Under the pieces are notes generated by a model. It did no database searches. It saw only the letters and a list, made by a program, of their open reading frames with translations, and was not told the origin of the DNA. This document shows positions 4,130 to 50,388 of a DNA stretch of 64,000 bases, in pieces. The stretch lies in assembly GCA_000004695.1 (NCBI GenBank), contig CM000151.3, forward strand, positions 6,720,001 to 6,784,000, in the 5' to 3' direction. Both the position numbers and the translations under genes were made by a program. The DNA comes from Dictyostelium discoideum (lineage: Eukaryota). Numbering within the stretch: position 1 is the first letter of the stretch; every line of letters starts with the position of its first letter.

Positions 4130-4203
4130 CGAGACCATCAGGGGTCGAACCTGAGACCTACCGGTTCGTAGCCGGTCGTTATATCCAACTAAACTATAGT
4201 CCC
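4130..4203 (-). tRNA. tRNA-Arg (anticodon ACG)
   Basis: Reverse complement reads GGGACTATAGTTTAGTTGGATATAACGACCGGCTACGAACCGGTAGGTCTCAGGTTCGACCCCTGATGGTCTC. Acceptor stem GGGACTA/TGGTCTC has 2 G-U pairs. Anticodon stem ACCGG/CCGGT with loop CTACGAA (U33, ACG, A37). T-arm TCAGG-TTCGACC-CCTGA. A T5 run follows on the minus strand. Confidence 0.55.
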
Positions 4204-4903: not shown

Positions 4904-6110
4904 ATGTATAAAATATCATTTTTTATTTTTATGGTATGTTTATTACTGACAAAATTAAATTATAAGGTATTTGCTGATAGTAGTTCATCAAATCCAACAT
5001 TACCAACAAATTGCAATGGCGTTGAATGTCCAATGACAGTGGTCTGTGGGATAGGATATAAACCACATATACCCCCTGGTGAATGTTGTCCAACTACATG
5101 TGAATGTGATACAACCTATCAATGTCCATTACTTGGATGTCCACCAGAAACTTATTATTATACCGCTCCAGGTAATTATAATTTTAATCATCACCATTTT
5201 TTTTTATTATTAATTAAAAAAAAAAAAAAATTATTAATTTTGTTAAATTATTTCCAAGGTGATTGTTGTGCAAGTAAGTGTGTTTGTAATTCAACCTATC
5301 CATGTCCACTTTTAGGTTGTGGTCCAGGCTATACCCCTTATACTCAACAAGGTAAAATTTTGTTTTTTAATCTTTTTTTTATAAAAATAATTCATTAATA
5401 TAAATAGAAATACTTTACAGGTGATTGTTGTCCAAACAAATGTGTATGTGATTCAAGTTATCAATGTCCTTTATTAGGTTGTCCCCCAAACACAATAACC
5501 TATACCAAACCAGGTAAATTTTTTTTTTTTTTAATTTTTTTTTTTTTTTTTAAAAAACTATTAATAAATTATTTTTTTATTTTTTTATTTTTTTTTTATT
5601 AATCTAGGTGATTGTTGTCCAAGTGAATGTATTCCAGATTGTAACGAAAATCAACCATGTCCAATTTTAAATTGTGCCACAAGTTTTATACCATATACTG
5701 AACCAGGTAAATTTTTTTATTTTGTTTTTTATATTTTGAATTCATTTAAAACCAATAATTAATATTAATTATTGATTTTCATTCTTTATTTAAAAGGTAA
5801 TTGTTGTGCCTCAAAGTGTGTTTGTGATCCAACATATCAATGTCCACTATTAGGTTGTGAACCAGGTTACAAAGCCTTTACTGCTCCAGGTGAATGTTGT
5901 GCAAGTCAATGTGTTTGTGATCCAAATTATCCATGTCCTTTATTAGGTTGTGGACCAGGTTATATTGCCTATACTCCTCCAGGTGAATGTTGTGCTAATA
6001 AATGTATTTGTGATCCAAATTATCAATGTCCTTTATTAGGTTGTCCACCTTCCACAATTGAATATACTGCTCCAAATGCTTGTTGTCCAAGTAAATGTGT
6101 TCCAGTTTAA
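4904..6110 (+). CDS. Secreted cysteine-rich repeat protein of ~288 aa; 5 exons (4904..5171, 5259..5351, 5421..5513, 5608..5706, 5797..6110); eight ~31-aa modules G-D/E-CC-x3-C-x-C-x3-Y-x-CPLLGC-x-PGY
   Basis: N-terminal signal peptide MYKISFFIFMVCLLLTKL. Every intron has a GTAA donor inside a Gly codon (phase 1) and an AG|GT acceptor. Exons 2, 3 and 4 each encode exactly one module. The total spliced length is divisible by 3. Confidence 0.55.
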
Positions 6111-6245: not shown

Positions 6246-7358
6246 TTAATTATTTTTATTATTGTTATGCCATTTCATAGCAATATATGGATCCCACATT
6301 AAACCAGTTGCAGACATAGCAATATCAGCACCAGAATTTAAAAAGTCATCAAAATGCTCAGGTTTGACAATACCACCACAACCCAAAAGTTTTAATTTAC
6401 TATTTTGTTTCTTAATGATTGAAGAAGCTGTTGAAACCCAATCTAAAGCAGCAGAACGAATTGGAGCACCACAAACACCACTTGTTAAACGAGAAGCACC
6501 CAATGATGGTTCACCAGTGATTTTATCGGTGACTTTCATTGATAAAGTATTGATACCAGCAATTGCGGCAACGCCAGCTCTTTCAGCTTGTTGGAATAAT
6601 CTTTCCATTTTTTCCAAGTCATCCATAACACCAACTTTAATAATGAGTGGAATATTCTTACTCGATAACTCTTTGACCAAAGTTGAAGAGATTTCATAGA
6701 CTGCATCTGGATTATGATAGATTTGACCCTCGCCAGTGACAACATTTGGACAACTATAATTTACTTCAACCATTTTTGCACCAGCATCACATGCAATACG
6801 AACTGTATCAACAAAATCTTGAAGAAAGTCATGTGCACTACTTGCGGTACCTGTAATTGATACGATCATTGATTGACCTGAACCTAAATAACTATGTGCC
6901 AATGCTATATCCTTATAGAGGTACTCTTTTCCCATACTTGGCATACCAAATGAATTGGTAATTGCTAATTGATCCATTGTGGTTGGAATGGTTTGAGTTG
7001 CATGTAATGTTGAACCACTATCTGATTTTGTAAATTGTTTATCCTCACTTTCCAAATCTAAATACATAACATTTGGTACTGGATGACCAAAATGTTCGTG
7101 ACTTCTAATGGTCTTATATGTTGGTAAATCAAATCCTGCTTCCAATGCAAATTTAACCCATTGACTATTTAATAATGGTCCTGCTGGTACACCAATTGGA
7201 CTTGCTAATTTTTGACCTAAGAAATCGATATATTTACTTGGATCTTTATTATCATTTCTATCTACTTTTTTATATCCTTCAATGAATGGTCCATTCTCTA
7301 AATTATCTTCCCAACTTTTATTAATATCATAAATTGGTTTATTAATTGGCCATTCCAT
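6246..7358 (-). CDS. Class-1 dihydroorotate dehydrogenase family flavoprotein (DHOD/DHPD-like TIM barrel), 370 aa, single exon
   Basis: Motif 'VEVNYSCPNV' matches the class-1 DHOD active-site signature N-x-SCPN with a Cys base. 'LLGCGGIVKPEHFDDFLNSGADIAMSATGL' matches the C-terminal FMN phosphate-binding G-T/C-GGI region. Overall collinear with Lactococcus PyrDa-type DHOD. Confidence 0.7.
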   Translation of the reverse strand: MEWPINKPIYDINKSWEDNLENGPFIEGYKKVDRNDNKDPSKYIDFLGQKLASPIGVPAGPLLNSQWVKFALEAGFDLPTYKTIRSHEHFGHPVPNVMYLDLESEDKQFTKSDSGSTLHATQTIPTTMDQLAITNSFGMPSMGKEYLYKDIALAHSYLGSGQSMIVSITGTASSAHDFLQDFVDTVRIACDAGAKMVEVNYSCPNVVTGEGQIYHNPDAVYEISSTLVKELSSKNIPLIIKVGVMDDLEKMERLFQQAERAGVAAIAGINTLSMKVTDKITGEPSLGASRLTSGVCGAPIRSAALDWVSTASSIIKKQNSKLKLLGCGGIVKPEHFDDFLNSGADIAMSATGLMWDPYIAMKWHNNNKNN

Positions 7359-8447
7359 TTTTTTTTTTTTTTTCTATTATAACGAATTTGAAAAAAAGAA
7401 AAAAAAAAAAAAAAAATATAAATTTGGTAAAAAAAAGAAGTAAAATGAAATTAAAAAAAAAATTAAAAAAAAAATAAAAAATGTCGCGTTTTTTTTTTTA
7501 TTTTTTTTTAAATTTTTTATTTTATTTTTTTTTTTTTTTTTTTTTGTTGCCGAAATATATGGCAATTTCACAATCCGATTTTTTAGATCTTTTTTTAATT
7601 TTATTTATAAAAAAAAAAAAAAAAAAAAACCCTTTAATAGATATAAATCAAATATAAGTTTAATACAAAAATTAAAAAAAAAAAAAAAAAAAGAAATTTA
7701 TTATTAACTTTTTTTTTTTTTTTTTTTTTATTTATTTTTATAAAAAAACGATTTACATTACGTAGTTTAATTAATTAACACACGGAGTGACAAATTTTAA
7801 AACTGTTTCGGTTTTTTTGGACCTTCTATAAAACCGATTACGGCTATTCAAAAATCATTTTTTTTTTATTTTATTTTTTTTATTTTTTTTATTTTATTTT
7901 TATTTTTTTTTATTTTTTTTTTTTTTTCACCTTTCGTTCGCTTTTTAAAAACTTTTTTTTTTTTTTATTTTCTCTTTTTCTTTTTTTTCTTTTCTCTTTT
8001 TCTTTACTAGTAAAGAGAGAGAGAAAAAAAAGTAGTGTAAAAATTAAATAAATAAACAAATTAATTAATTAATATTTTTTAAAATTAAAATCCAAAATCT
8101 TTTTTTGTTATTTTAATATCACTATTAATAAATTTTGATTTTCCAAAATTTAATTTTTTTTTTTTCAAAATTTTCTTTTTTTAGACTGCACCCTTTCAAG
8201 TTCACACACTCCCTACATTTTTTTTAAATTAAAAATTATATTTATTTTTTAAATTTTTATTTTTTCATTATTTAATTTCTTTTTTTTTTTTAATACACGA
8301 TATTTTTATTTTTTTTCATAATAATATCAAATTAAATCTGTAATAAACTTTTTATAAATAAAATAAAAAAAAAAAAAATAAAAAAAACCCTAAAAACAAA
8401 AAAAAAACAAAACAAAACAAAACGTTCAAATAAATTATATAAATTTA

Positions 8448-8478
<31 letters not shown>

Positions 8479-8610
8479 TTTAAAAGGTATGGTAATCTTC
8501 AAATTTTAATTTCATTAAAAAATTTCATCCCGATTATTAATTTCCAAAAATTTTTTTTTTTCTTTCTCCCTTTTTTTTTTTCTTCTCTCCCTTTTTCTCC
8601 TCCTTCTCCT

Positions 8611-8646
<36 letters not shown>

Positions 8647-8693
8647 CCTTTCTTTCCTTTTCTTTTAAGTAATCCAATATATATAAAAATAAA

Positions 8694-8877
8694 ATGGATA
8701 TTTTAAATAGAAAAAAAGGTTGTTTAGTACTTGAGGATGGTACTAAATTAAGTGGTTACTCATTTGGAAGTGAAAGATCTGTTGCAGGTGAATGTGTTTT
8801 TTCAACTGGTAAGTAAATTATAAAGAAAAAAAAAAAAAAAAAATTATAATAAATAAGATTATTAATTTTCAAATATA

Positions 8878-8928
<51 letters not shown>

Positions 8929-11900
8929 ATTTTAGGTATGGTTGGTTATAATGAATCAATTTCAGATCCATCATATACTGGACAAATTTTAGTATTCTCA
9001 TTTCCATTGATTGGTAATTATGGTGTACCATCATTTAGAGAAAGAGATCCAGAATCAGGATTAGCAGTAAACTTTGAATCAGATAAAGCACATGTTCAAG
9101 CAATTATTTGTTCAGAGTATTGTGATGAATATTCACATTGGGCAGCAGAGAAATCACTTTCAGAGTGGTTAAAAGAATCAAACATTCCAGGTTTGTACGG
9201 AATCGATACACGTGCTTTGATCACCAAAATTCGTGAGAAGGGCTCTCTAAAAGGAAAGGTAATCATTGGTGACTTTGATGAAAGTAAATTGGAGTTTGAA
9301 GATATTAATTTACGTAATTTGGTTGCAGAAGTTTCAACCAAAGAGATTAAAGAATACAAAGCTGCAGAGAACAATAAGAAAACTGGCGAAAAAAGAAAGA
9401 ATAAAAAAGTGATCGTACTTGATTGTGGTATTAAAAATAATCAAATCCGTTGTTTATTAAATCGTGGTGTAGATCTTAAAGTTGTACCATGGGACTACGA
9501 TGTGGTTGCAAACGAATCAATCAATGATTACGATGGTGTTTTCATTAGTAATGGTCCAGGTGATCCAAGTCTTTGTGGAAAAGCAATTGAAAACATTAGA
9601 AAAGTATTGGCATTGCCAGTTGCCAAAGCAGTATTTGGTGTTTGTATGGGTAATCAATTGTTAGGTTTAGCCGCTGGTGCACAAACTCATAAAATGGCCT
9701 TTGGTAATCGTGGTCTCAATCAACCATGTGTCGATCAAATTAGTGGCCGTTGTCATATCACCTCACAAAATCATGGCTTTGTTATCGATTCAAATTCTTT
9801 ACCAGCTGGTAGTGGTTGGAAAACTTACTTTATAAATGCAAATGATGCCTCCAACGAAGGTATCTATCATGAGAGTAAACCATGGTTCTCTGTTCAATTC
9901 CATCCAGAAGCTATGGCAGGTCCAACCGATACTGAATATCTTTTCGATAATTTCGTTGATAACGTTTGTGGTGAACAACAACATAAATCACCAATGAATA
10001 AATCTAAAATCATCGATTGTCCAAAAGGTATCAATAAAGTTTTAATTTTAGGTTCAGGTGGTCTTTCAATTGGTCAAGCTGGTGAATTTGATTATTCTGG
10101 TTCTCAAGCTATCAAAGCACTCAAAGAAGAAGGTATTAAAACCATTTTAATTAATCCAAATATCGCAACAGTTCAAACTTCACCAGGTCTTGCCGATAAA
10201 GTTTATTTCCTTCCAGTTAATGCTTCCTCTGTTCAAAAAGTAATTGAAAATGAAAATCCAGATGGTATTTTAGTAACTTTTGGTGGTCAAACAGCTTTGA
10301 ATTGTGGTATTGAACTCTATAAATCTGGTATACTCGAGAAATATAATTGTAAAGTATTGGGTACTCCAATTGAAACTATCATTGCCACTGAAGATAGAGG
10401 TATCTTTGCAGAGAAATTATCAGAAATCAATGAACGTATCGCACCATCAATGGCTTGTAATAGTTTAGAGGAATCTTTGATTGAAGCAGAGAAAATTGGT
10501 TATCCAGTCATTGTTAGAGCTGCCTATTGTTTGGGTGGTTTAGGTTCTGGTTTCGCCGATAATAAAGAACAACTCACAGCATTGGTCACTGAAGCAATGG
10601 CAACCTCTTCACAAGTTTTGGTTGAAAAATCACTCAAAGGTTGGAAAGAAATTGAATATGAAGTTTTAAGAGATAGTAAAGACAATTGTATCACCGTTTG
10701 TAATATGGAAAATTTCGATCCACTCGGTATTCATACTGGTGAATCAATCGTCGTTGCACCATCACAAACACTTTCAGATAGAGAATATCAAATGTTAAGA
10801 GAAACTGCAATTAAAACCGTTCGTCATCTTGGTGTAATTGGTGAATGTAATATTCAATATTCCCTCAATCCATATAGCGAAGAATATTGTATCATTGAAG
10901 TTAATGCACGTCTTTCACGTAGTTCAGCATTGGCAAGTAAAGCAACCGGTTATCCACTTGCTTTCATCTCTGCCAAAGTTGCTTTGGGTTATGATTTAGC
11001 AGCATTAAGAAATACAATCACAAAGAAAACTACAGCATGTTTCGAACCTTCATTGGATTATTTAGTTGTTAAAATGCCACGTTGGGATTTAAAGAAATTC
11101 ACTCGTGTTTCCAATAAAATTTCATCATCAATGAAATCAGTTGGTGAAGTTATGTCAATTGGTAGAAAATTTGAAGAAGCAATTCAAAAAGCAATTAGAA
11201 TGGTTATGGATGGTGCAGTTGAAGGTTTCCAAGCTGGTGTTTTCCCAACCTCTGATGAAGAACTTGAACATCCAACTAATAATCGTATTTTAGTATTGGC
11301 AAGTGCTTTCAAAGATGGTTATTCCATTGATAGAGTACATCAATTAACAAAGATTGATAAATGGTTCTTAACAAAACTTAAAGCAATCATCGATTTAGAG
11401 AATCATTTATCAACCTATAAAGAACCATCACAAATTCCATCAGAGATTTTGAAATTCTCAAAACAACAAGGTTTCTCTGATAAACAAATCGCCAGAGCAG
11501 TTGGTACCACAGAATTGAATGTTAGAGATTATAGAAAGAAAATGGGTATCATTCCATGTACAAAACATATCGATACAGTTGCTGCAGAATTCCCAGCTCA
11601 AAACAATTATCTTTACATGACTTACAATGGTGAAACCAATGATGTAAATATCAATGAAAAATCTTATATCACATTAGGTTCAGGTTCATATCGTATTGGT
11701 AGTAGTGTTGAGTTTGATTGGTGCGCAGTTAGTTGTATTCGTACATTACGTAGTTTAGGTTTGAAATCAATTATGATCAATTTCAATCCAGAGACTGTTA
11801 GTACTGATTATGATGAATGCGATTATCTCTACTTTGAAGAACTCTCATTGGAAAGAGTATTGGATATCTATGAACGTGGTGGTCCAAATTCAAATCATGG

Positions 11901-14900
11901 TGTAATATTATCAGTTGGTGGTCAAATTCCAAACAATTTAGCCATTCCATTATCACGTTGTAATGTTAAAGTTTTAGGTACTCATCCAGATATGATTGAT
12001 TCAGCTGAAAATCGTTATAAGTTCTCACGTCTTTTAGATACCATTGGAATTGATCAACCACTTTGGAAAGAATTAACAAGTGTTTCCGATACAAAAGATT
12101 TCTGTGAATCTGTTGGTTTCCCATGTTTAGTTCGTCCATCTTATGTACTCTCTGGTGCTGCTATGAATGTAGTTCACTCTTCACAAGATCTCGAAACATT
12201 CCTTACTGAAGCTGCTGCAGTTTCACGTGATCATCCAGTTGTCATTTCAAAATTCATTCAAGAAGCTAAAGAGATTGAAATTGATGCTGTCGCCGATAAT
12301 GGTCGTATTGTTTTATTCGCAATTAGTGAACATGTTGAAAATGCCGGTGTACACAGTGGTGATGCTACCATTGTTTGTCCAGCTCAAGATCTTGATGATG
12401 CCACCATCCTCAAGGTTGAAGAAACCGCTAGAAAGATCGCTGAAGCACTCAATGTCAGTGGTCCATTCAATATTCAATTCATTGCTAAAAACAATGAAAT
12501 CAAAGTTATCGAATGTAATTTACGTTGTTCACGTTCTTTCCCATTCGTTAGTAAAACATTAAATATCAATTTTATCGAATTAGCAACTAAAATCATCATT
12601 AAACATCAATATGATCTTCCAGTTGTAAATCCAATCAATTATGTTGGTGTCAAAGTACCACAATTCTCATTCATTCGTCTTAAAGGTGCAGATCCAGTTT
12701 TAGGTGTAGAAATGGCATCCACTGGTGAGGTAGCATGTTTTGGTAATACTCGTGAAGAAGCTTACGTCAAGGGTTTAATTTCTACTGGTTTCAAAGCACC
12801 AGAAAAAAATGTACTCCTTTCAATTGGTTCATTCAAAGAGAAACATGAATTCCTTCCATCAGCTCATAAATTAATTAAATTAGGTTATACCTTATTTGGT
12901 ACTCAAGGCACTGCCGATTTCTACAGTGAAAATGGTGTTCCAGTAACTCAACTCAATTGGGATGAAGAGGATTTAGGTGAAAATGTAATTCAAAAGAAAA
13001 TGACTGAAAATACAATTCATCTCTTCATTAATTTACCATCAAAGAATAAATATCGTCGTCCATCTTCATTCATGTCAAGAGGTTATTCATTACGTCGTGT
13101 TGCTATCGATTTCCAAGTACCACTCATTACCAACATCAAATGTGCTAAATTATTCGTCGATTCTTTATCCTACATGAAAGGTCCAATGCCAATTGAAAAT
13201 GTTGATTGGAGAACAAGTAATAAGATCATTCGTTTACCAGGTTTAGTTGATGTTCATGTTCATCTTAGAGAACCAGGTGCCACTCATAAAGAAGATTGGG
13301 ACAGTGGTACAGCAACTGCATTAGCTGGTGGTTTCACCATGGTTGGTGCTATGCCAAACACTAATCCAGCCATTATGGATGATGCATCATTTGAACTTTG
13401 TAAATCATTGGCAGCCTCAAAAGCACGTTGTGATTATGGTATTTTCATTGGTGCCACTTTTACCAATACAACAACCGCTGGTAAATTCGCATCCGATGCC
13501 ATGGGTATGAAAATGTATCTCGAAGAAACCTTTGCTCCACTTCCATTAAAAGATGATATCAACGTTTGGAGAGATCATATTATGAATTGGCCAGGTACAA
13601 CACCAATTTGTGTTCATGCTGATGGTAGAAATCTTGCAGCAATTCTCTTATTAGGTTGGATGTATGATAAACATATGCATGTTTGCCACGTTTCACATAA
13701 AGAAGAGATTGATATTATTCGTGATGCAAAGAAACGTGGTATGAAATTATCATGTGAAGTTTCACCACATCATTTAACCCTTTGTGATAAAGATATTCCA
13801 CGTATTGGTGCTGGTCAATCTGAAGTTCGTCCAAAACTTGGAACTGAAGAAGATTTGAATGCACTCTGGGACAATATCGATTACATTGATATGATTGCAA
13901 CCGATCATGCTCCACACACTTGGGAAGAGAAATGTAGCGCCAAACCACCACCAGGTTTCCCAGGTCTTGAAACTTCATTACCATTGATGTTAACTGCCGT
14001 CCATAATGGTAGAATCACCATTGAAGATTTGGTAATGAAAATGCACACAAATCCAATTCGTATTTTCAATCTTCCAGAACAACCAGATACTTACATTGAA
14101 GTTGATATGGAACAAGAATGGACCATTCCAAAGAAACCACTCTATTCAAGATGTGGTTGGACTCCATTCGAAGGTCTTCAAGTACGTGGTAAAGTTGTTA
14201 AAGTCGTACTTCGTGGTCAAATCGCTTTCATTGATGGTAAAATCATTGCACAAAAAGGTTTTGGTTTAAATTTACGTTCAAAAGAATATCAAGTTGAAAA
14301 AGAAAGATTACTCAATACTACCAAACCAATTTATGATAAAATCCCAACTGTTCAATCAACAAAGAATCAAACTACAAATATTACTTCACCATCATTAATT
14401 AGTGATTCACCAAATAAAGCCATCAATAAGATTAAATCTACTTCCACTTCTACAACTCCAAATACTCAAGAACAATCAACACAACATTTACCATTAGTTG
14501 GATCAAATCTTGCATCAGCTGTATTAAATAAAAAAGAAGATACACTCCAAACTGCTTTCAATATCTCAGATAATTCATTGGCAGGTAAACATATTTTCTC
14601 AGTTAAACAATTCAATAGAAAACAATTACATGCCTTATTTGGTATTGCTCATGAAATGAGAATTTTAGTTAAGAGATCAGGTGGTTCAGATTTATTGAAG
14701 GGTAAAGTTTTAGCTACTCTCTTCTATGAACCAAGTACTCGTACTCAATGTTCATTCACTGCTGCCATGCAAAGATTAGGTGGTTCAGTTGTCACTGTTG
14801 ATAATGTATCATCATCAGTTGCCAAAGGTGAATCAATCGCTGATACCATTCAAACTTTAGAATCCTATTGTGATGCAGTTTGTATGAGACATCCAGCTGT

Positions 14901-15498
14901 TGGTTCAGTTGAAAGTGCAATTCAAGTCGCCAAAAAACCAATCATTAACGCAGGTGATGGTGTTGGTGAACATCCAACTCAAGCTTTATTGGATGTTTTC
15001 ACAATTCGTGAAGAATTAGGTACCGTCAATGGTTTAACTATCACCGTTGTTGGTGATCTTAAACATGGCCGTACCGTTCATTCTTTGGTTCGTCTCTTAG
15101 CAAACTATCAAGTTAAAATCAATTATGTCTCACCATCTTCACTCTCAATGCCAACTGAAATCATCAAAGAACTCAATGAAAAAGGTATTGAACAAAAAGA
15201 ATATACAAATATCGAATCTATCCTTCCAACTACCAATGTACTATATGTAACTAGAGTTCAAAAAGAACGTTTCCAAAGTATTGAAGAATATGAAAAAGTT
15301 AAAGATTCTTTCATTATCACTCCACATACTCTCACTAAAGCTTCTGATAATATGATCGTTATGCATCCACTTCCAAGAATTAATGAAATTAGTCCAGAAG
15401 TTGATTCTGATCCACGTGCTGCTTACTTTAGACAAATGGAAAATGGTTTATATGTCCGTATGTCACTTTTAGCTCTTGTATTTGGTGCTGGTGTTTAA
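8694..15498 (+). CDS. pyr1-3: CAD multifunctional pyrimidine biosynthesis protein (GATase-CPSase large subunit-dihydroorotase-aspartate transcarbamoylase); 2 exons (8694..8808, 8936..15498), 2225 aa
   Basis: Exon 1 '[30 protein letters not shown]' joins '[20 protein letters not shown]' via a phase-1 GTAAGT intron, collinear with the CAD N-terminus. DHOase motif [15 protein letters not shown]; ATCase [13 protein letters not shown] near the C-terminus. The computed length equals that known for Dictyostelium PYR1-3. Confidence 0.9.
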
Positions 15499-47312: not shown

Positions 47313-48566
47313 ATGAATTCCTACGCAGACGCGGCTAAAATGGCCAACCCCTCCACCCATATGGACGAGGCATCAGAGAACTTCATTAAGGAATTCTCCA
47401 CAAAAACAGCAGAGATAAAGGAGACCTACCCCAAATTATCAATAGGCCTCAAAGACATCTCCAAATACTGCGAGACCATATTGAACATGACTGCTCTCTC
47501 AACCTACGAGAAAAACAACGGATTCTACCCAATTACACTCGAATTCCCCAAAATGGATCTCATGGGGTTAGAAGAAATGAGAAAAACACTCTCAAACTAC
47601 GATATCCCAATCGACAAGATATACATAGGCAAAGGAACTAGAAAAACGATCCACCTGATGATTAAAAACGAACAATCTCTCCTAAATATCATTAGAGATA
47701 GAAGCAAATTGGGAACCTTCATCACCTCCAGTAGAGACTACCACGTCCTCACAGGAAGAGTAAGAATTCCAAGAGAAAAGGCAGGAATAGTGGACGCCCT
47801 CATCAAAACTGCCTTTGCAGAAGAAATACCCTATGCAATATACCATACTATATACTCCACCGACCACCTCCTAGTATTCGGTCTAATAGAATGCAAAATA
47901 GGCGATCAAATGAAATCTGGCCAACACAATACAGAAATCGCCAACTTTACCATCAGAACGGCCACCAAAACCTACTCCTCACAAAAGAAAAATAAGAAAG
48001 TAGAGTCAAACAACACGGAAGAACCATTAGAAGATGAGATGACAGATGATCCTCCCAACATCCAAAACAGGATAGCAATCAAATCCTCTCAACCAAAACC
48101 ACAACAACAAACATACAACCCAGCAAACAATAAGTCTGATAAACAATCAACCCAAGAGAAAAAAGCCCAATCAAAAAAGTCCTCTCAACCTCTTCCCCCC
48201 AAAAACCAAGCAGAATCTCAATCTGTCAAACCCACCACAACCACTACCACAACATCCAACGCCATCCAAAAAGACAATGCCAACAAAACGAGCACTAACA
48301 TCCATTCATCCTCGGAAAACAGAGAGAAGACACCAAACATCCCTCCATCACATAAACGCAAGAACGAGGAAATCCACTCAAACAACGAGGTCACCCAACT
48401 CTCACCAACAATAAACAGAAGCAACCCTTACATCCCATCCACCCCTAAGACACCTGTCAATAAAGAAAGGAAAGGAATCATTGAGAGCTTCATAGAGAGT
48501 ATCTACCCTTCACCATCCAAACCGCAGCTATACGACTCCCAAGAGGAGATCGATATCATCTCATAA
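47313..48566 (+). CDS. Retrotransposon ORF1 protein (417 aa, Ser/Thr/Gln-rich C-terminus)
   Basis: Single ORF immediately upstream of, and overlapping, the endonuclease-type ORF2 start. Present in two copies in the window. Confidence 0.55.
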   Translation: MNSYADAAKMANPSTHMDEASENFIKEFSTKTAEIKETYPKLSIGLKDISKYCETILNMTALSTYEKNNGFYPITLEFPKMDLMGLEEMRKTLSNYDIPIDKIYIGKGTRKTIHLMIKNEQSLLNIIRDRSKLGTFITSSRDYHVLTGRVRIPREKAGIVDALIKTAFAEEIPYAIYHTIYSTDHLLVFGLIECKIGDQMKSGQHNTEIANFTIRTATKTYSSQKKNKKVESNNTEEPLEDEMTDDPPNIQNRIAIKSSQPKPQQQTYNPANNKSDKQSTQEKKAQSKKSSQPLPPKNQAESQSVKPTTTTTTTSNAIQKDNANKTSTNIHSSSENREKTPNIPPSHKRKNEEIHSNNEVTQLSPTINRSNPYIPSTPKTPVNKERKGIIESFIESIYPSPSKPQLYDSQEEIDIIS

Positions 48567-48833: not shown

Positions 48834-50388
48834 GCTGGTAGTGCGTGGGCGTTGAGTTCATTGACTATGGTTATTGCCAATGAGTTTGGGGGGGATTGGG
48901 ATTTGATAAAGTCTGTTTTGTTTTTGAAGGAGGTGTCAGTGCCCCAACCTCTGACATTCCATTGGTTGATTTTGATTACTACCATTATGAGATGATATCG
49001 ATCTCCTCTTGGGAGTCGTATAGCTGCGGTTTGGATGGTGAAGGGTAGATACTCTCTATGAAGCTCTCAATGATTCCTTTCCTTTCTTTATTGACAGGTG
49101 TCTTAGGGGTGGATGGGATGTAAGGGTTGCTTCTGTTTATTGTTGGTGAGAGTTGGTTGACTTCATTGTTTGAGTGGATTTCCTCGTTCTTGCGTTTATG
49201 TGATGGAGGGATGTTTAGTGTCTTCTCTCTGTTTTCCGAGGATGAATGGATGTTAGTGCTCGTTTTGTTGGCATTGTCTTTTTGGATGGCGTTGGATGTT
49301 GTGGTAGTGGTTGTGGTGGGTTTGACAGATTGAGATTCTGCTGGGTTTTTGGGGGAAGAGGTAGAGATGACTTTTTTGCTTGGGCTTTTTTCTCTTGGGT
49401 TGATTGTTTATCAGACTGATTGTTTGCTGGGTTGTTTGTTTGTTGTTGTGGTTTTGGTTGAGAGGATTTGATTGCTATCCTGTTTTGGGTGTAAGGAGGA
49501 TCTGTCATCTCATCTTCTAATGGTTCCTCCGTGTTGTTTGTCTCTACTTTCTTGTTTTTCTTTTGTGAGGAGTAGGTTTTGGTGGCCGTTCTGATGGTAA
49601 AGTTTGCGATTTCTGTAATGTGTTGGCCAGATTTCATTTGATCGCCAATTTTGCATTCTATTAGACCGAATACTATGAGGTGGTCGGTGGAGTATATAGT
49701 ATTGTATATTGCATAGGGTATTTCTTCTGCAAAGGCAGTTTTGATGAGGGCGTCCACTATTCCTGCCTTTTCTCTGGGAATTCTTACTCTTCCTGTGAGG
49801 ACGTGGAAGTCTCTACTGGAGGTGATGAAGGTTCCCAATTTGCTTCTATCTCTAATGATATTTATGAGAGATTGTTCGTTTTTGATCATCAGGTGGATCG
49901 TTTTTCTAGTTCCTTTGCCTATGTATATCTTGTCGATTGGGATATCGTAGTTTGAGAGTGTTTTTCTCATTTCTTCTAACCCCTTGAGATCCATTTTGGG
50001 GAATTCGAGTGTAATTGGGTAGAATCCGTTGTTCTTCTCGTAGCAGTCATGTTCAATATGGTCTCGCAGTATTTGGAGATGTCTTTGAGGCCTATTGATA
50101 GTTTGGGGTAGGTCTCCTTTATCTCTGCTGTTTTTGTGGAGAATTCTTTAATGAAGTTCTCCGATGCCTCGTCCATATGGGTGGAGGGGTTGGCCATTTT
50201 AGCCGCGTCTGCGTAGGAATTCATCTCGATGGGATTCCTTTGAATCGGCGATTTGGTAAGTTAGATCTGTAGATCGTGGTGGATTGGTGATTTTTTTTGA
50301 AAGATTGGTTAAAATTGACCGAGATTAAGGATAGAAAAGGATGAATTACTTTTCACGTGTATCTTGTATCCTCTTGATCGCGGTACGG
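48834..50388 (-). mobile_element. Inverted second copy of the TRE-type retrotransposon 5' region (5' UTR 50388..50225, ORF1, ORF2 start); a few substitutions relative to the left copy
   Basis: Reverse complement of 47149..48698 with a handful of mismatches. Extends 18 nt further into ORF2 (..NELNAHALPA) before hitting the vector. Confidence 0.6.
49215..50224 (-). pseudogene. Second ORF1 copy, disrupted by a frameshift near 49985 (split into 82-aa and 259-aa ORFs)
   Basis: Left copy reads NMTALSTYEKNNGFYPITLEFPKMDLMGLEEM. Right copy reads NMTATRRTTDSTQLHSNSPKWISRG* and then restarts at MDLKGLEEM. This could be a sequencing error in a single-clone gap-filling read. Confidence 0.5.

Follow-up and report, generated by a model that had tools for sequence, protein, structure and literature searches.

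Dihydroorotate dehydrogenases (DHODs) convert dihydroorotate to orotate in step 4 of the de novo synthesis of uridine monophosphate (UMP), and the established enzymes belong to classes 1A, 1B and 2. Class 1A includes fumarate-dependent enzymes such as Lactococcus lactis PyrDA, Saccharomyces cerevisiae Ura1 and the trypanosomatid DHOD. Class 1B is represented by the catalytic subunits Bacillus PyrD and L. lactis PyrDB, which are associated with PyrK and NAD+. The class 2 enzymes, among them Escherichia coli PyrD and human DHODH, are membrane-bound, use quinone and have a Ser as the catalytic base, whereas class 1B, the flavin mononucleotide (FMN) domain of dihydropyrimidine dehydrogenase (DPD) and PreA have a Cys. 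The subject here is pyr4, the DHOD gene of Dictyostelium discoideum, which lies next to the CAD gene pyr1-3 on a stretch of 64,000 nucleotides (assembly GCA_000004695.1, contig CM000151.3, positions 6,720,001 to 6,784,000; this whole stretch is called the window). To judge from its sequence, its product Pyr4 is part of a lineage separate from classes 1A, 1B and 2 and from DPD/PreA, an unclassified, "chlamydial-type" DHOD.

6246..7358, minus strand: pyr4 coding sequence, intronless, 370 aa; open reading frame (ORF) with an exact match to P07670/XP_643195.1; Pfam DHO_dh, 75 bits

The ORF is one unbroken frame of 370 codons, and its translation agrees residue for residue with XP_643195.1 / EAL69246.1 / UniProt P07670 (PYRD_DICDI, "dihydroorotate oxidase", D. 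discoideum AX4). This identity implies that the start, the stop and the absence of introns are all correct. The initial annotation, which had described an intronless ORF of 370 aa with an NYSCPN motif, is thereby confirmed in its observation; the motif occupies residues 200-205 (context VNYSCPNV) and includes the catalytic Cys203. Its interpretation was partly right. The "candidate" or "second" enzyme that it proposed has to be dropped, as the ORF product is the annotated pyr4; by its sequence, the flagged gene is already named and known, and it is no new candidate. In a table of a 2008 paper, DDB0167009 is listed as "pyr4; dihydroorotate dehydrogenase, dihydroorotate oxidase". A further entry, CAA26674.1 ("unnamed protein product"), is 95% identical to Pyr4 and differs from it in short scrambled stretches, which look like the frameshift errors of an old sequence. 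We take this entry to be the original sequence of Jacquet and colleagues from 1985. Their article in Biochimie reportedly described the Dictyostelium gene as a DHOD active in yeast, where it complemented ura1.

Pyr4 was classified with Pfam, with the curated NCBIfam models and their cut-offs, by a search of the PDB sequences and by pairwise BLAST to representatives of the classes. The Pfam model DHO_dh (PF01180) matches residues 132-359 only, with 75 bits and thus above its gathering score, which places Pyr4 in the DHOD/DPD superfamily. None of the curated NCBIfam models reaches its cut-off, and all fall far short of it: class 1B (PRK07259) with 76.7 bits against 269, the class 1 subfamily (TIGR01037) with 65.1 against 270, PreA (NF006183) with 61.3 against 335, the class 2 models with 34-59 against 267-477, the archaeal DHOD model with 52 against 330, and class 1A dihydroorotate oxidase (PRK02506) with 50.9 against 301. 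A full-length profile match to tRNA dihydrouridine synthase (Dus) was not found either. The best match among the PDB sequences is L. lactis PyrDB (1ep1; E = 1.7e-9). In pairwise BLAST, Pyr4 or its bacterial relatives score 23-67 bits against the representatives of 1A, 1B, 2 and PreA (30-67 bits against 1A and 1B), compared with 113 bits for 1A against 1B and 123 bits for 1B against PreA in the same set. A neighbour-joining (NJ) tree was built from 124 members of the lineage and 4 outgroups (362 columns, 100 bootstraps). The lineage is split from 1A, 1B, 2 and PreA in 100% of the replicates. The class 1 assignment of the initial annotation, which had pointed to Gram-positive bacteria and to URA1, can therefore be kept in part: DHOD family, Cys base and bacterial affinities stand, but neither class 1A (51 bits against 301) nor class 1B (76.7 against 269) does.

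The differences from each known type are as follows. The class 1A enzymes share about 18-23% identity with Pyr4 (30-40 BLAST bits), and compared with them Pyr4 has an additional N-terminal extension of about 45 aa and an insertion of about 25-30 aa, while the C-terminal helix region is missing. The class 1B catalytic subunit is the closest by sequence and has the Cys base in common with Pyr4, but the score is far under the model cut-off of 269, and the bacterial relatives of Pyr4 have no PyrK homologue within about 8 kb (85 loci). As for class 2, the E. coli enzyme has its Ser where Pyr4 has Cys203; the N-terminal extension of Pyr4, hydrophilic and acidic, cannot be aligned to the E. coli N-terminal domain, and BLAST gives 23-33 bits. 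The FMN domain of DPD and PreA are at a comparable distance from Pyr4 in sequence and structure. Here Pyr4 differs by SCPN in place of the SCPQ of Salmonella PreA, by the lack of a C-terminal 4Fe-4S domain and by a gene context that is biosynthetic, not catabolic. The Pyr4 chain stops about 10 residues past the barrel.

Within the lineage, conservation is high (59% mean column identity among 32 sequences). Its members have an N-terminal extension of about 45 residues with the pattern W-x-P..PIYD..KSY.EN...GPFF, an insertion of about 25-30 residues ahead of the NSFGMPS loop, at residues 100-128 of Pyr4, and a short C-terminus. Pyr4 residues N135, N200, S202, C203, P204, N205, K241, N270, G297 and G328-G329 are kept in 105-124 of the 124 aligned members; the least conserved contact is N200, which is found in 105 members and replaced by Asp in 19. 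In L. lactis PyrDA, N67, N127, S129, C130, P131, N132, K164, N193 and G249-G250 are the equivalents of Pyr4 N135, N200, S202, C203, P204, N205, K241, N270 and G328-G329. Lys43 probably corresponds to K82 of the invariant YKT motif. Judged by this alignment, Pyr4 keeps all class 1 contacts to FMN and the pyrimidine ring. As a member of the DHOD/DPD superfamily it is a flavoprotein with a TIM-barrel fold. The first 45 residues of Pyr4 contain 10 Asp/Glu and 7 Lys/Arg, with no hydrophobic segment and no presequence-like N-terminus. The hallmarks of class 2, that is the Ser base, the N-domain for the membrane and quinone tunnel and the mitochondrial presequence, are absent from Pyr4.

The function of the lineage can be read from the gene context of its bacterial members. 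In 85 bacterial loci, mostly from Chlamydiota and some from Patescibacteria, ORFs of at least 90 aa were called and labelled by phmmer against reference pyr proteins. The gene directly upstream of the lineage gene (here X) is pyrC in 62 of the 85 loci; in 69, pyrE or a fusion of pyrE with pyrF follows directly downstream. The commonest order is carA-carB-(GT9)-pyrB-pyrI-pyrC-X-pyrE-pyrF. There are also natural fusions, in which X is joined to orotidine monophosphate (OMP) decarboxylase, orotate phosphoribosyltransferase (OPRT) or dihydroorotase (DHOase). One of them, a Magasanikbacteria gene for an X-OPRT-OMPdecase protein of 844 aa, stands right behind a DHOase-carbamoyltransferase fusion. 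The operon context and the fusions, together with the intact active site, point to step 4 of UMP synthesis as the role of the lineage, and Pyr4 itself is very probably the enzyme that converts dihydroorotate to orotate. They also argue against the DPYD, dihydrouracil and Dus readings that some annotations of metagenome-assembled genomes (MAGs) carry. No PyrK homologue was found in the 85 loci (phmmer E<=0.01, about 8 kb), while in the positive control the Bacillus pyrK was seen directly upstream of pyrD. ORFs between pyrC and X in MAGs labelled "Gammaproteobacteria" were considered as PyrK and rejected, as they match TauE, DUF5692 or a fragment of ornithine carbamoyltransferase, or nothing at all. 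All ten fused forms scanned were free of a redox domain.

Some of these loci show further peculiarities. A Glyco_transf_9 (heptosyltransferase-like) gene lies repeatedly between carB and pyrB in chlamydial loci (L001, L002, L008, L010, L023 and others). Proteins P0174 and P0209 are fusions of a class II aminoacyl-tRNA synthetase-like domain (tRNA-synt_2) with MGS-like and DHOD domains, to which P0209 adds a phosphoribosyltransferase domain. A Magasanikbacteria locus encodes a fusion of argininosuccinate synthase with an MGS-like domain (L072:5023-6651), and the DHOD gene is the second gene downstream of it. By their domain content, these fusions suggest non-standard early steps of pyrimidine or arginine synthesis in some uncultured bacteria.

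With Cys203 in its class 1 motif, Pyr4 should follow class 1 chemistry. The loci without PyrK, the fusions without a redox domain and the acidic, non-hydrophobic N-terminus let us infer a soluble, stand-alone enzyme, which would work in a ping-pong manner like class 1A. Dihydroorotate would reduce the FMN with Cys203 as the base, and the reduced flavin would then be re-oxidised by a small soluble acceptor, most likely fumarate, with O2 as a side reaction. The choice of fumarate is tentative and stands somewhat short of even odds. In five loci of Patescibacteria, X follows directly behind a gene for a fumarate-forming lyase, in places with an overlap of 4 nt. In L059 and L072 this lyase resembles AspA/FumC (509 bits, cut-off 510), and in L003 and L030 it is ArgH (319 bits, cut-off 279.5). 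These neighbours may be taken as a weak hint of fumarate as the acceptor. Patescibacteria mostly do without quinones and a respiratory chain, and this speaks against a quinone as the acceptor of their lineage members.

In protein searches, which listed the best 120 matches, homologues of Pyr4 with 63-94% identity were present in every dictyostelid sampled, and the next matches listed were proteins of about 365 aa with about 50% identity from metagenomes and MAGs. Among 1.84 billion cluster representatives, scanned exhaustively with HMMER, 308 clusters match at E<=1e-30 over the full length, N-terminal extension included. Of the species genomes in GTDB, 410 have a relative. The best 80 of these 410 are nearly all Chlamydiota MAGs; besides these there are Patescibacteria, Magasanikbacteria among them, a small number of MAGs labelled Gammaproteobacteria or Verrucomicrobia and a single Pseudobdellovibrionaceae. 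A search with a profile of the eukaryotic clade returned no named eukaryotes beyond the dictyostelids and Ceratiomyxa. The public names of lineage members that lie in pyr operons conflict: "tRNA-dihydrouridine synthase", PreA, "DHOD (NAD+) catalytic subunit" and "hypothetical protein" are all in use (P0060, P0077, P0119 and many JGI entries).

In the NJ tree, the dictyostelids are monophyletic in 100% of the replicates. Their sister group (77%) consists of Ceratiomyxa fruticulosa (EukProt EP01112) and short environmental contigs. One of these contigs, 1.27 kb in length, is monocistronic and has untranslated regions (UTRs) and an AATAAA signal, which identifies it as a eukaryotic transcript. 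The eukaryotic clade is placed among Chlamydiota sequences. Of two deeper-branching members whose surroundings were inspected, one has ordinary bacterial genes around it (rpmF, acpP, rnc and a sigma-54 activator), and the contig of the other is too short to show any. The codon usage of pyr4 is fully native: its GC3 (G+C content at third codon positions) is 0.186 against 0.195 for CAD, and its relative synonymous codon usage (RSCU) correlates with that of the other ORFs in the window at r = 0.94. GC3 and RSCU thus rule out a recent transfer of pyr4, of which they carry no signal, and any transfer must be ancient. The position of the eukaryotic clade among bacteria and the native codon usage together suggest an ancient bacterial origin of this clade. 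The gene would have passed in a single ancient transfer from a bacterium to the ancestor of Dictyostelia and Ceratiomyxa, the closest bacterial sequences being those of Chlamydiota.

On the most far-reaching reading, to which we give a probability of roughly 45%, the lineage would be a fourth class of DHOD, uncharacterised in biochemistry and structure, with Pyr4 as the one member that has been studied genetically. Enzymes of this class would have a Cys base, stand alone, carry their own N-terminal extension and insertion, and occur in environmental Chlamydiota, Patescibacteria and a few amoebozoans. Their acceptor or their quaternary organisation would be unlike those of 1A, 1B and 2, and in dictyostelids such a bacterial-derived cytosolic enzyme would replace the mitochondrial one. 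The DHOD of a major model organism fits no established class, and the literature found reports no solved structure and no defined acceptor for the lineage. The full-text literature searched, which did not cover the Jacquet and Faure papers of 1985-1989, yielded only the table that names pyr4 and no paper in which the Dictyostelium DHOD is assigned to a class or a further class of DHOD is described; the supplementary table of PMC5953543 has no Dictyostelium entry. A family model made for the lineage would put right the annotation of several hundred genomes with a lineage member. Should a class 2 enzyme be absent from dictyostelids, they make pyrimidines independently of the respiratory chain, which would bear on the use of inhibitors of human DHODH in Dictyostelium and on how Amoebozoa came by bacterial genes in the course of their history.

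Three points weigh against the main reading, that of Pyr4 as the soluble step-4 enzyme of bacterial origin. In the NJ tree, a simple one with only four outgroups, the nodes between the eukaryotic clade and Chlamydiota reach bootstrap values of 0-15%, so that the donor and the nesting are weakly resolved. The fumarate-forming lyases adjoin X in 5 of the 85 loci and could equally reflect aspartate supply or a coupling of arginine and carbamoyl-phosphate metabolism. The third point is that the window covers 64 kb of the D. discoideum genome, elsewhere in which a class 2 DHODH may co-exist. Pyr4 would then be a second, auxiliary cytosolic DHOD beside a canonical mitochondrial enzyme, and some euglenozoans do carry both types (PMC7052976). 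For Dictyostelium this is highly improbable, given that Pyr4 is the PYRD_DICDI entry of Swiss-Prot and that its orthologues have been kept in every dictyostelid sampled. Dictyostelids are not known to have a class 2 paralogue. The chance that the lineage has a catabolic or salvage function instead, as dihydropyrimidine or dihydrouracil dehydrogenase or oxidase, is next to negligible. PreA and DPD are among the nearest neighbours of Pyr4 in sequence and structure, one chlamydial homologue is annotated as PreA, and there is a precedent in fungal class-1A-like proteins that proved to be dihydrouracil oxidases (PMC10395836). The initial annotation had listed this option as well, but it is contradicted by the pyr operons of the 85 bacterial loci, in which orthologues lie between pyrC and pyrE, and by the fusions to pyrC, pyrE or pyrF. 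Moreover, Pyr4 has SCPN like the DHODs and lacks the Fe-S C-terminal domain, a PreT neighbour is absent, and the PreA model gives 61 bits against 335. The direction of the transfer may also be questioned, since the lineage could be ancestrally eukaryotic or could have been passed from amoebae to their chlamydial symbionts. Chlamydiota do live inside amoebae, and the nodes between eukaryotes and bacteria are almost without bootstrap support. Such an origin is nevertheless quite improbable in view of the 410 GTDB species, which include Patescibacteria and other phyla, of deep branches in ordinary bacterial neighbourhoods and of bacterial copies that are integral to pyr operons; the named eukaryotes, even by the eukaryote-clade profile, are limited to dictyostelids and Ceratiomyxa.

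The close neighbourhood of pyr4 and CAD invites yet another explanation, which concerns regulation. The parts of this arrangement are:

7359..8693, no strand: divergent intergenic region between pyr4 and pyr1-3; 1,335 bp, 14.4% G+C

8550..8648, plus strand (the CAD coding strand): pure pyrimidine (C/T) tract, 46-144 nt ahead of the start codon of CAD

8694..8808, plus strand: pyr1-3 (CAD) exon 1, 38 codons plus 1 nt; ATG and GT donor read from the sequence

8809..8935, plus strand: pyr1-3 intron, GT..AG, A/T-rich, read from the sequence

8936..15498, plus strand: pyr1-3 exon 2, ORF of 2,186 aa; Pfam GATase, CPSase, Amidohydro_1 (dihydroorotase-like) and OTCace (aspartate carbamoyltransferase)

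The spliced CAD protein has 2,225 aa, and the CPSase_sm_chain profile starts at position 30 of exon 2. Coding sequence in the window has about 25-38% G+C and intergenic sequence about 14%. The head-to-head arrangement of the two genes around an A/T-rich spacer, as first described, is correct, and the spacer presumably holds both promoters. The CT-rich block reported in it at 8560..8650 is real and consists of pyrimidine throughout (100%; 68 T and 23 C). It is the only place in the window with at least 97% pyrimidine and at least 25% C over 60 nt, and it is probably promoter-proximal or 5'-UTR sequence. The spacer contains no Rfam or tRNA genes, with only weak sub-threshold matches to plant miRNA models. 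These matches, to miRNA precursor models, lie on a (CT)n/(GA)n inverted repeat at 7973..8044 and reach 28 bits, where the gathering score is 96; the hairpin is taken as chance.

In D. purpureum, CAD and pyr4 are likewise divergent neighbours, 1.24 kb apart, whereas in Cavenderia fasciculata and Heterostelium album pyr4 is adjoined by unrelated genes and not by CAD. The juxtaposition would thus be a late rearrangement in the lineage of D. discoideum and D. purpureum. A relic of an operon was considered as well and rejected: the basal dictyostelids are without the arrangement, and CAD is the fusion protein usual in eukaryotes. An alignment of the spacer with that of D. purpureum gave no conserved blocks but only matches of A/T runs, and the CT tract has no counterpart there. 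It is unlikely, for these reasons, that the pair functions as one bidirectional regulatory unit whose shared control element is the CT block, even though both genes serve the same pathway and the arrangement is kept in D. purpureum; a spacer of 1.3 kb is also enough for two independent promoters. According to the work of Faure and colleagues from 1988 and 1989, the PYR mRNAs are all said to fall during development. The pyr5-6 gene is regulated like the other PYR genes, but it lies outside the pyr4/CAD pair. The two genes may still be co-regulated. Of the earlier idea of a horizontal acquisition co-regulated with CAD, the bacterial affinity stands; a conserved shared element has no support from the comparison of species.

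The window contains some other features of minor interest. Just downstream of pyr4, ORFs at 4904..5398 and 5772..6110 (plus strand) encode Cys-rich repeats (C-x-CD-x-Y-x-CPLLGC-x-PGY...) with no Pfam match and are probably exons of one secreted repeat protein. A tRNA-Arg gene (anticodon ACG) is located at 4130..4203 on the minus strand. Farther away, two near-identical inverted ORFs of 417 and 259 aa, at 47313..48566 (plus strand) and 49215..49994 (minus strand), have no Pfam match. With GC3 values of 0.49 and 0.41, against 0.08-0.21 in the other long ORFs of the window, they probably represent two copies of some repeated or mobile element.

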